Part shown: positions 19,772 to 21,604 of the stretch, one piece after another
Layout: the number at the start of each line of letters is the position of its first letter
How positions within the stretch are numbered: position 1 is the first letter of the stretch
NCBI RefSeq assembly: GCF_009931435.1
Contig: NZ_CP043414.1
Source: Escherichia coli
GTDB taxonomy: Bacteria > Pseudomonadota > Gammaproteobacteria > Enterobacterales > Enterobacteriaceae
DNA: 64,000 nt
Strand: one strand, 5' to 3'
The notes under the pieces: generated by a model
Database searches by the model: none
Told to the model about the DNA's origin: nothing
The model's input: only the letters and a program-made list of their open reading frames with translations
Made by a program: the position numbers and the translations under genes

Positions 19772-20719
19772 ATGCGTTTATTTTTTTCTCTGCTGATACT
19801 GTTGTCATTTTTTTCCCGTGCAACAGAACCTGTTCAGGTATTTACTGATGATTTAGGGCGCAAAGTCACTGTTCCTGCTCATCCAAAGAGAATTGTCTCT
19901 TTACACGATCTTGATATCACTATTCCTCTGATTGAGCTCGGTGTACCTCCTATCGCCAGCCACGGGCGAACTCGGCCTGACGGTAGCCATTTCATTCGAT
20001 CTGGCGCGTTATTGACAGGTGTCGACTTTGATAATTCATCGATCGCCTTTATTGGTACCGCTGATATTGATATTGAAGCGATTGTGGCGGCAAAGCCTGA
20101 CCTGATCATCACAGAACCGACCCGTAATACGCCCATTGAACAACTTGAAAAAATTGCGCCCACGGTGAGCATTGATCATCTCAAAGGGGGCGCGCCAGAA
20201 ATCTATCGCAAGCTGGCAGAACTTACAGGAACGCAGTCGCAGCTGGCGATACTTGAACGCCGCTATCAGGCACAAATCAATGCGCTGAAGGCGACGCTGG
20301 ACAGCCAAAAAATAACGGTATCGGTGATTCAGGCAAACCAGGGAAAAATTAATGTGATGCATAGCTATCATTCGCTGGGGCGGGTATTACGCGATGCTGG
20401 TTTTCGTTTTCCGCCGCTGATTGAGAGCATTCCTGAAGGTGGGCGAATGGATGTGAGCGCGGAGCGTTTACCTGAACTGGATGCCGATTTTGTTTTTGCA
20501 ACCTGGCGCGGTGACACCGGGGGTAAACCTCAGGATGAGCTGGCAGCAATGGAAAAAGTCATGCCGGGATGGTGTCAGTTTCTGACTGCCTGTCGTTCCG
20601 GGCGTTATGTGCTGATTTCTCGTGAAGAGGCAATTTCTAACTCCTTTGCATCTCTGGGGCTGATGGCTGCGCAGATACAATCACAAATTGCAGGGCGACC
20701 TCTACCGGAGGCTAAATGA
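19772..20719 (+). CDS. Periplasmic substrate-binding protein (FhuD/FepB-like)
   Basis: ORF track frame 19709..20719; start chosen at ATG 19772 (MRLFFSLLILLSFFSRA signal peptide) with SD ggag. Confidence 0.8.
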   Translation: MRLFFSLLILLSFFSRATEPVQVFTDDLGRKVTVPAHPKRIVSLHDLDITIPLIELGVPPIASHGRTRPDGSHFIRSGALLTGVDFDNSSIAFIGTADIDIEAIVAAKPDLIITEPTRNTPIEQLEKIAPTVSIDHLKGGAPEIYRKLAELTGTQSQLAILERRYQAQINALKATLDSQKITVSVIQANQGKINVMHSYHSLGRVLRDAGFRFPPLIESIPEGGRMDVSAERLPELDADFVFATWRGDTGGKPQDELAAMEKVMPGWCQFLTACRSGRYVLISREEAISNSFASLGLMAAQIQSQIAGRPLPEAK

Positions 20720-21604
20720 TCCAGAAAGATAAAGCGCGGGTTGATATTTTTGGTGAGCGTTTTCGCACTCGCGCGAGTCAGTTAACGCCTGGGTTAAGAG
20801 CTGTCGCCAGCTACATTAATGAGCATCGTGAAGTGGTACTCGAGCAAACGGCGATGGAAATTGCGGCCACGTTGAACACTTCCGATGCCACAGTTATCAG
20901 GGCTATACAGGCCCTGGGGTTTGCCGGGCTGCGTGATCTGAAACGCACTCTGGAACAGTGGCTTGGTCCAGCCCTTAGTTCCAGCGAAAAGATGTCTACG
21001 ACGGTGAGTAACTTGACGAGCGATGTTAACACCGCAATCGACTTTGTTCTTGAAGGGCATTTGTATACCTGTAATGTCCTGTCAGAGCCTGAAAACCGCC
21101 ACGCGCTTGCGCAAGCTGTAGCGTTGTTGGTGCAGGCACGGCAAGTCGCAATTTTTGGCATTGGCGCTTCGGGTATTCTGGCGGACTATACCGCACGACT
21201 ATTCAACCGCATAGGTTTGCCTGCCACGGCACTAAACCGTACGGGTATTGGCCTTGCCGAGCAACTGATCGCGCTTCAACGTGGCGATGTTCTGATCATG
21301 ATGGCGCAAAAATCTGCGCACCGGGAAGGGGTGACAACGCTTCGTGAGGCGAGGCGGCTGGGGAATCCCTGTTATTTTGCTGACAAACGCGCTGGATTCA
21401 CGTTTTAGCAAAGACGCCAGTATCGTGATTCATGTTCCGCGCGGGGATGAAAAAGGGAAAACGCCGCTACATGGTACGGTATTGTTGTGTCTGGAAATGA
21501 TTGTCTGGTCGGTAGCTTCCGCAGTGCCGCAGCGTGCGGTTAAAACCATTAAGCGAATTAACGATTTCCATCGAGGACTGAAAACGGGAAGAAAGAATGG
21601 CTAA
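20716..21604 (+). pseudogene. RpiR/SIS-family transcriptional regulator, apparently frameshifted
   Basis: N-terminal ORF 20716..21408 (HTH plus first part of SIS domain) ends ...REARRLGNPCYFADKRAGFTF; the SIS C-terminus continues in another frame (ORF 21344..21604, ...GIPVILLTNALDSRFSKDASIVIHVP...); a single-base indel near 21361..21372 would fuse them. Confidence 0.55.

Follow-up and report, generated by a model that had tools for sequence, protein, structure and literature searches.

Is the RpiR-type regulator gene at the end of a transporter island in this E. coli sequence genuinely broken, is its interruption an error of the sequence record, and what would its loss mean for the transporter? 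In the window (the whole 64-kb stretch of DNA that was analysed) the region 20716..21604 holds two open reading frames, which a preliminary description of this DNA interpreted as the separated halves of one regulator gene that is either a pseudogene or the victim of a sequencing error. Both alternatives stand as the right ones to weigh, and our own preference leans towards a real mutation.

A one-base insertion separates the two halves of a single gene

The two reading frames (20716..21408 and 21344..21604) are present exactly as had been described and lie in different frames. When the region is aligned with the E. coli strains 2020CK-00188, 446 and CFT073, the window carries an extra A at 21364/21365, reading GGGGAATCC where these three strains read GGGGATCC, and this base falls inside the short interval (21361..21372) to which the preliminary description had assigned a single-base indel. 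The copy on the plus strand is 889 bp long vs 888 bp in its relatives, and the frame is lost after codon 216, leaving one ORF of 230 aa and another of 86 aa. Deleting the extra A in silico restores a single 888-bp ORF of 295 aa with an HTH_6 and a SIS domain, just the fusion of about 295 aa that had been foreseen, and translation of the repaired gene gives exactly WP_032185141.1, the protein of strain 2020CK-00188. We found no change that compensates for the disruption when the gene is compared with its conserved single-ORF orthologues. The features of the interrupted gene, which we identify below as fitR, are:

20716..21604, plus strand: fitR, RpiR/MurR-type auto-repressor of the fit operon, frameshifted (nucleotide identity, published primers, Pfam)
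21364..21365, plus strand: one inserted base, AA vs A in all relatives (alignments, probe searches)
20716..21408, plus strand: ORF1, native FitR residues 1-216, then 14 out-of-frame residues and a stop (ORF list, alignment, Pfam)
21344..21604, plus strand: ORF2, a mechanical GTG-started ORF that carries residues 217-295 in the native frame (ORF list)

ORF1 retains the HTH_6 domain, the linker, SIS strands 1-3 and one helix, and its residues 217-230 (NPCYFADKRAGFTF) are read out of frame. Seven out-of-frame residues open ORF2, and the native residues 217-295 that follow them comprise SIS strands 4-5 and the C-terminal helices; ORF2 is unlikely to yield a product of its own.

The inserted base lies at the centre of a perfect palindrome, GGGATCCC (21359..21371), which contains a Dam GATC site, and the insertion destroys this site. 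A terminator scan flags the GGGATCCC hairpin followed by TTATTTTGCT within the fitR coding sequence, and this intragenic match is probably due to chance.

The interrupted gene is fitR, the last gene of the fit operon

In the repaired protein Pfam recognises HTH_6 (PF01418) at residues 15-81 (E = 1.1e-9), which is intact in ORF1, and SIS (PF01380) at residues 138-247 (E = 9e-14), which the actual ORF1 does not contain in complete form as its native sequence ends at residue 216. The gene is a member of the RpiR/MurR family by descent, and its predicted product is incomplete. In 1,870 E. coli genomes it has counterparts of 99.7-99.8% identity that are 888 bp long and annotated as 'MurR/RpiR family transcriptional regulator', and it shares 99.8% nucleotide identity with E. 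coli fitR, for example that of the type strain DSM 30083. The primers published for fitA, fitB, fitC, fitD, fitE, fitR and the fit promoter (PMC2593036) all map to the window in order with 0-1 mismatches, those for fitR (fitR1, fitR2 and the qPCR primers) at 20716, 20773, 20819, 20883 and 21584. Because all of these primers fall in the expected genes, we identify the gene as fitR, which is already characterised as the repressor that acts locally on the fit operon for iron uptake in E. coli. The annotation should therefore read fitR (frameshifted) and not two hypothetical ORFs.

The gene order is parE, fitA (minus strand), fitB, fitC, fitD, fitE and fitR (plus strand), followed by the convergent ygiN and by mdaB. 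The regulator does belong to the transporter island, as the preliminary description held, and is the last gene of fitBCDER; its start overlaps the stop of fitE (ATGA). The island itself is accessory: of 5,426 complete E. coli genomes 1,870 have it, and 5,425 have the flanks. Its other features are:

14411..16552, minus strand: fitA, TonB-dependent outer-membrane receptor, intact (gene comparison, primers)
16553..16925, no strand: divergent fitA/fitB promoter region, published FitR binding target ('fit promoter' primers at 16574 and 16909; EMSA in PMC2593036)
16926..17735, plus strand: fitB, ABC ATPase, intact (gene comparison, primers)
17732..18715, plus strand: fitC, FecCD-type permease, intact (gene comparison, primers)
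18724..19761, plus strand: fitD, FecCD-type permease, intact (gene comparison, primers)
19772..20719, plus strand: fitE, periplasmic substrate-binding protein, intact (gene comparison, primers)
21617..21632, plus strand: terminator-like hairpin between fitR and the convergent ygiN (consensus scan only)

The hairpin at 21617..21632 is the probable end of the fitBCDER transcript. The spacer between fitA and fitB also contains a Fur-box-like sequence, GTAATTGAGAATCATTCAA (16651..16669), which matches 12 of 19 consensus positions when counted by eye and lies below the cut-off of a strict Fur-box scan (≤6 mismatches) that returned no site in this spacer. One position of this sequence, 16655, is T in the window and A in the comparison locus L006. 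Scans of the same spacer for consensus promoters and inverted repeats found nothing.

The insertion is confined to this sequence

We determined the distribution of the insertion by megablast of 20600..21700 against the 5,426 complete E. coli genomes, which located the region in 1,870 of them. Nearly all of the full-length matches (33 of 34) span 1,100 bp vs the 1,101 bases of the query, and in the single match of 1,101 bp fitR is still 888 bp long, with the extra base located in the spacer before ygiN. An 888-bp match was likewise found in 60 of 60 genomes sampled evenly down the ranking. A 53-nt probe across the site, built so that only an insertion-bearing sequence can seed a megablast match, found the insertion in none of the 5,426 genomes, and the repaired 52-nt control probe matched 1,867 of them. 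Exact scans for the insertion-bearing 34-mer GAGGCGGCTGGGGAATCCCTGTTATTTTGCTGAC were negative in the GTDB species-representative genomes and also in the JGI metagenome contigs. Both ORF products are absent from an exact look-up among ∼15 billion proteins, a result that is uninformative if the sources leave pseudogenes untranslated. The insertion was thus seen in no independent assembly among the complete E. coli genomes, the GTDB representatives and the metagenome contigs, nor in the exact-protein look-up. The exact repaired protein is common, being indexed in 555 blocks of the assembly collection. Elsewhere in the Enterobacterales, FitR is encoded by one uninterrupted ORF of 295-299 aa in Salmonella, Lelliottia, Enterobacter, Kosakonia, Citrobacter, Raoultella, Klebsiella, Erwinia and Sodalis.

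These counts bear directly on the idea that the two ORFs form a natural split gene, for which the preliminary description had named the same arrangement in many strains as the telling observation. The search for such strains came out negative, and with no insertion among 5,426 genomes vs 1,867 intact sites a natural split gene is excluded. A related proposal has the ribosomes regain the frame, as through a +1 slip at the end of ORF1 (ACG-UUU-UAG-C), where a UUU codon followed by the UAG stop and a C would allow tRNA-Phe to re-pair perfectly in the +1 frame, which is the native one. However, no Shine-Dalgarno-like stimulator is seen in the bases just upstream of the stop (read by eye), 14 wrong residues would still stand where strand 4 belongs even after a slip, and the split arrangement is kept neither in any of the 1,867 E. 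coli genomes nor in any orthologue. For lack of conservation we rejected both the natural split gene and programmed +1 frameshifting, and we attach practically no probability to either. As a feature of the sequence, the 3′ end of ORF1, ACG TTT TAG C (21397..21409), does resemble +1 recoding sites.

Damaged fitR alleles of other kinds exist at low frequency. Three singleton FitR alleles with in-frame deletions occur in ENA assemblies (P0003, P0004 and P0005, of 285, 284 and 273 aa), and the parts missing from them belong to the first SIS strand and the glycine loop, to the HTH, or to strand 2.

The insertion may be a recent mutation or a consensus error

A close relative of the window, an ENA contig (ERZ27238060 k111_9749, locus L008), is 99.98% identical to it over 20.9 kb and has an intact fitR that encodes the exact repaired protein. 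Over this length the two differ by three substitutions and by the fitR insertion, which is the sole indel; two of the substitutions are inside fit genes, and both are synonymous. With so near a relative intact, the change must have arisen, or entered as an error, after the split from that relative.

If the extra A is a consensus error of sequencing or assembly, then the organism has an intact 888-bp fitR. Several observations agree with this explanation, namely that the insertion is unique to the window sequence, that the 99.98% identical relative lacks it, that the truncated 230-aa protein is absent from the protein collection, and that the site is a GATC (Dam) palindrome, a context known as a trouble spot for consensus errors in some long-read (nanopore) base-callers. 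The absence of the insertion elsewhere does not separate mutation from error, however, because a private mutation gives the same negative result, and strain-private real frameshifts are common in E. coli genomes. An error is further opposed by the nature of the change, A to AA with no long homopolymer, by the other 63 compared genes being free of frame-breaking indels, and by the insertion being the only indel vs L008. We consider an error a substantial possibility, though one that falls well short of even chances.

The quality of the surrounding sequence was judged against 2020CK-00188, the nearest complete genome. Over the 64-kb window there are 12 gap openings, and fitR is the sole gene among the 64 compared that carries a frame-breaking indel. 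With 63 other genes unbroken and one indel vs L008, the assembly does not look error-prone, and we rejected an error-rich assembly as the source of the insertion on the grounds that 63 of the 64 compared genes are without a frame-breaking indel. The clean state of these genes mildly favours a real mutation, and on balance we regard the insertion as real, with somewhat better than even confidence.

Truncated FitR is predicted to be non-functional

A structure model of the intact FitR (mean pLDDT 78, with most of the SIS core at about 85-96) puts the five SIS strands at residues 144-147, 170-173, 192-196, 219-223 and 236-239 and helices at residues 203-215, 229-233, 251-269 and 271-288. According to this model the frameshift after residue 216 removes strands 4-5 of the five together with the helices at 229-233, 251-269 and 271-288, with strand 4 being replaced by foreign residues. 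Among 37 aligned orthologues, which are 67-99% identical, 27 columns of the 79 lost residues are invariant, and solved full-length RpiR regulators also align with FitR through this segment, as far as residue 286. Taken together, modelled structure and conservation suggest that the SIS domain would be unfolded or unstable, with loss of function. RpiR regulators are thought to oligomerise through their SIS domain, and a FitR that lacks strands 4-5 and the C-terminal helices is most likely unable to fold or oligomerise, so that the allele would be a null.

It is conceivable that the 230-aa product is made with its HTH intact and still binds the fit promoter, in which case it would be a repressor blind to its ligand, or a weak or dominant-negative form, and not a null. 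HTH_6 (residues 15-81) and the linker helix are indeed untouched, and translation of fitR is probably still coupled to fitE via the ATGA overlap. Nevertheless, the product lacks two of its five core strands as well as the C-terminal helices and gains 14 foreign residues, and the lost region is highly conserved; we think such a functional remnant very improbable.

Loss of FitR would raise fit expression only modestly

What is established about FitR comes from E. coli i484 (PMC2593036, Ouyang & Isaacson 2008), and our literature search added nothing on fit beyond that study. In i484, where lacZ fusions, qRT-PCR and EMSA were used, FitR binds the fitA-fitB promoter fragment, its over-expression represses fit, a fitR knock-out derepresses fitA and fitB 2-5-fold, and Fur represses fit about 23-fold independently of FitR (PMC2593036).

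These results show FitR of i484, a different strain, to be a direct, Fur-independent auto-repressor of the divergent fitA/fitB promoter. In the window fitR, the last gene of fitBCDER between parE and ygiN, would have been inactivated by a very recent, strain-private A insertion. As the repressor that is lost acts on its own operon independently of Fur, only a modest rise in fit expression is to be expected, of ∼2-5-fold, that should still be repressible by iron through Fur. No polar effect is expected since fitR is last in the operon and ygiN is convergent, and fitA to fitE are intact. The reading that we prefer, with somewhat better than even confidence, is hence a strain-private fitR null pseudogene created by one A after codon 216, with mild derepression of fit.

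The preliminary description had proposed that the broken regulator could leave the transporter constitutively on or off. It was right that the gene is an RpiR/SIS regulator within the transporter island. A constitutively off state is not expected, because FitR is a repressor, and constitutively on overstates the case, because derepression is 2-5-fold only and repression by Fur is independent of FitR.

A stronger version is that the insertion, besides being real, is adaptive: a divergent E. coli lineage would recently have lost FitR and thereby express more of an otherwise intact Fit siderophore importer. We consider this unlikely; if it were true, losing FitR would offer a fast way of adjusting iron uptake. 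A variant in which the HTH-only remnant serves as an effector-blind repressor is less likely still. If the mutation is real, the strain is a natural fitR null in which the published 2-5-fold derepression could be checked. The understanding of RpiR regulators and of iron uptake is unchanged, and the finding has little import beyond annotation, since this is an already known gene with either an ordinary strain-private frameshift or a base-calling error.

Close relatives differ in other frameshifts and in local identity

In 2020CK-00188 fitR is intact and fitE is frameshifted (L001, 7174..8120) and annotated as a pseudogene by PGAP; its fitE has one G fewer in a G run that reads GGGGG at 20186 in the window. 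Between them, the two closest assemblies thus show two different single-base frameshifts in one operon, fit. The fitE frameshift of 2020CK-00188 would agree with a relaxation of selection on fit within the lineage, and we count it on the side of a real fitR mutation. For yghX (46571..47458) the window has an uninterrupted 888-bp ORF, and 2020CK-00188 has an extra G in a G run.

Identity to relatives varies along the region. Genes fitB, fitC and fitD are 100% identical to those of 2020CK-00188, and the flanking parE and mdaB are 96.8% and 95.9% identical, respectively. Two further loci (L007 and L009) match the window exactly save for a block at 13-16 kb, covering the 3′ end of parE and fitA, with 16-36 differences per kb. 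This mosaic identity across 11000..23000 suggests that recombination has taken place around the island. With most E. coli the window shares only 97.2% identity over 12000..32000.

Elsewhere in the window, the hybG-yghU spacer contains a 10-bp tandem duplication (CGGCCTGGAT twice, 54686..54705) that is a single copy in 2020CK-00188, and the gene at 61915..63270 ('lipopolysaccharide biosynthesis protein') has an in-frame 6-bp repeat expansion (ATTTTG, 62465..62476) relative to the same strain. The right end of the window (61111..64000) enters an accessory cluster that continues in 2020CK-00188 (L005, 1..8852), where it encodes lptF and lptG (each annotated 'LPS export ABC transporter permease'), a YtfJ-family protein, serine palmitoyltransferase (spt), an acyl carrier protein, an epimerase and a fatty acyl-AMP ligase. 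This cluster looks like one for lipid biosynthesis that is unusual for E. coli.

Comparison with known systems

The closest characterised counterpart is FitR of E. coli i484 (PMC2593036), which is the same gene, lies last after fitE and has the same HTH_6 and SIS architecture. The copy in the window differs from it by the one-base insertion after codon 216, which truncates the SIS domain, and the effect expected of this frameshift allele resembles that of the published fitR::Tn5 knock-out.

As frameshifts, the disrupted fitE and yghX of 2020CK-00188 are comparable cases, being likewise single-base indels in conserved genes that PGAP labels 'frameshifted'. They differ from the present case in their context, as both lie in G runs, whereas the fitR insertion is a change of A to AA within a GATC palindrome.

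Among solved full-length structures, the RpiR/MurR regulators of PDB entries 8k3b, 8ju9 and 4ivn likewise combine an N-terminal HTH_6 with a C-terminal SIS domain and align with FitR over residues 23-286 or 15-272 (E = 1e-14 to 4e-14). They are distant from FitR in sequence, and FitR differs in controlling an iron-siderophore-type ABC importer and not a sugar pathway.
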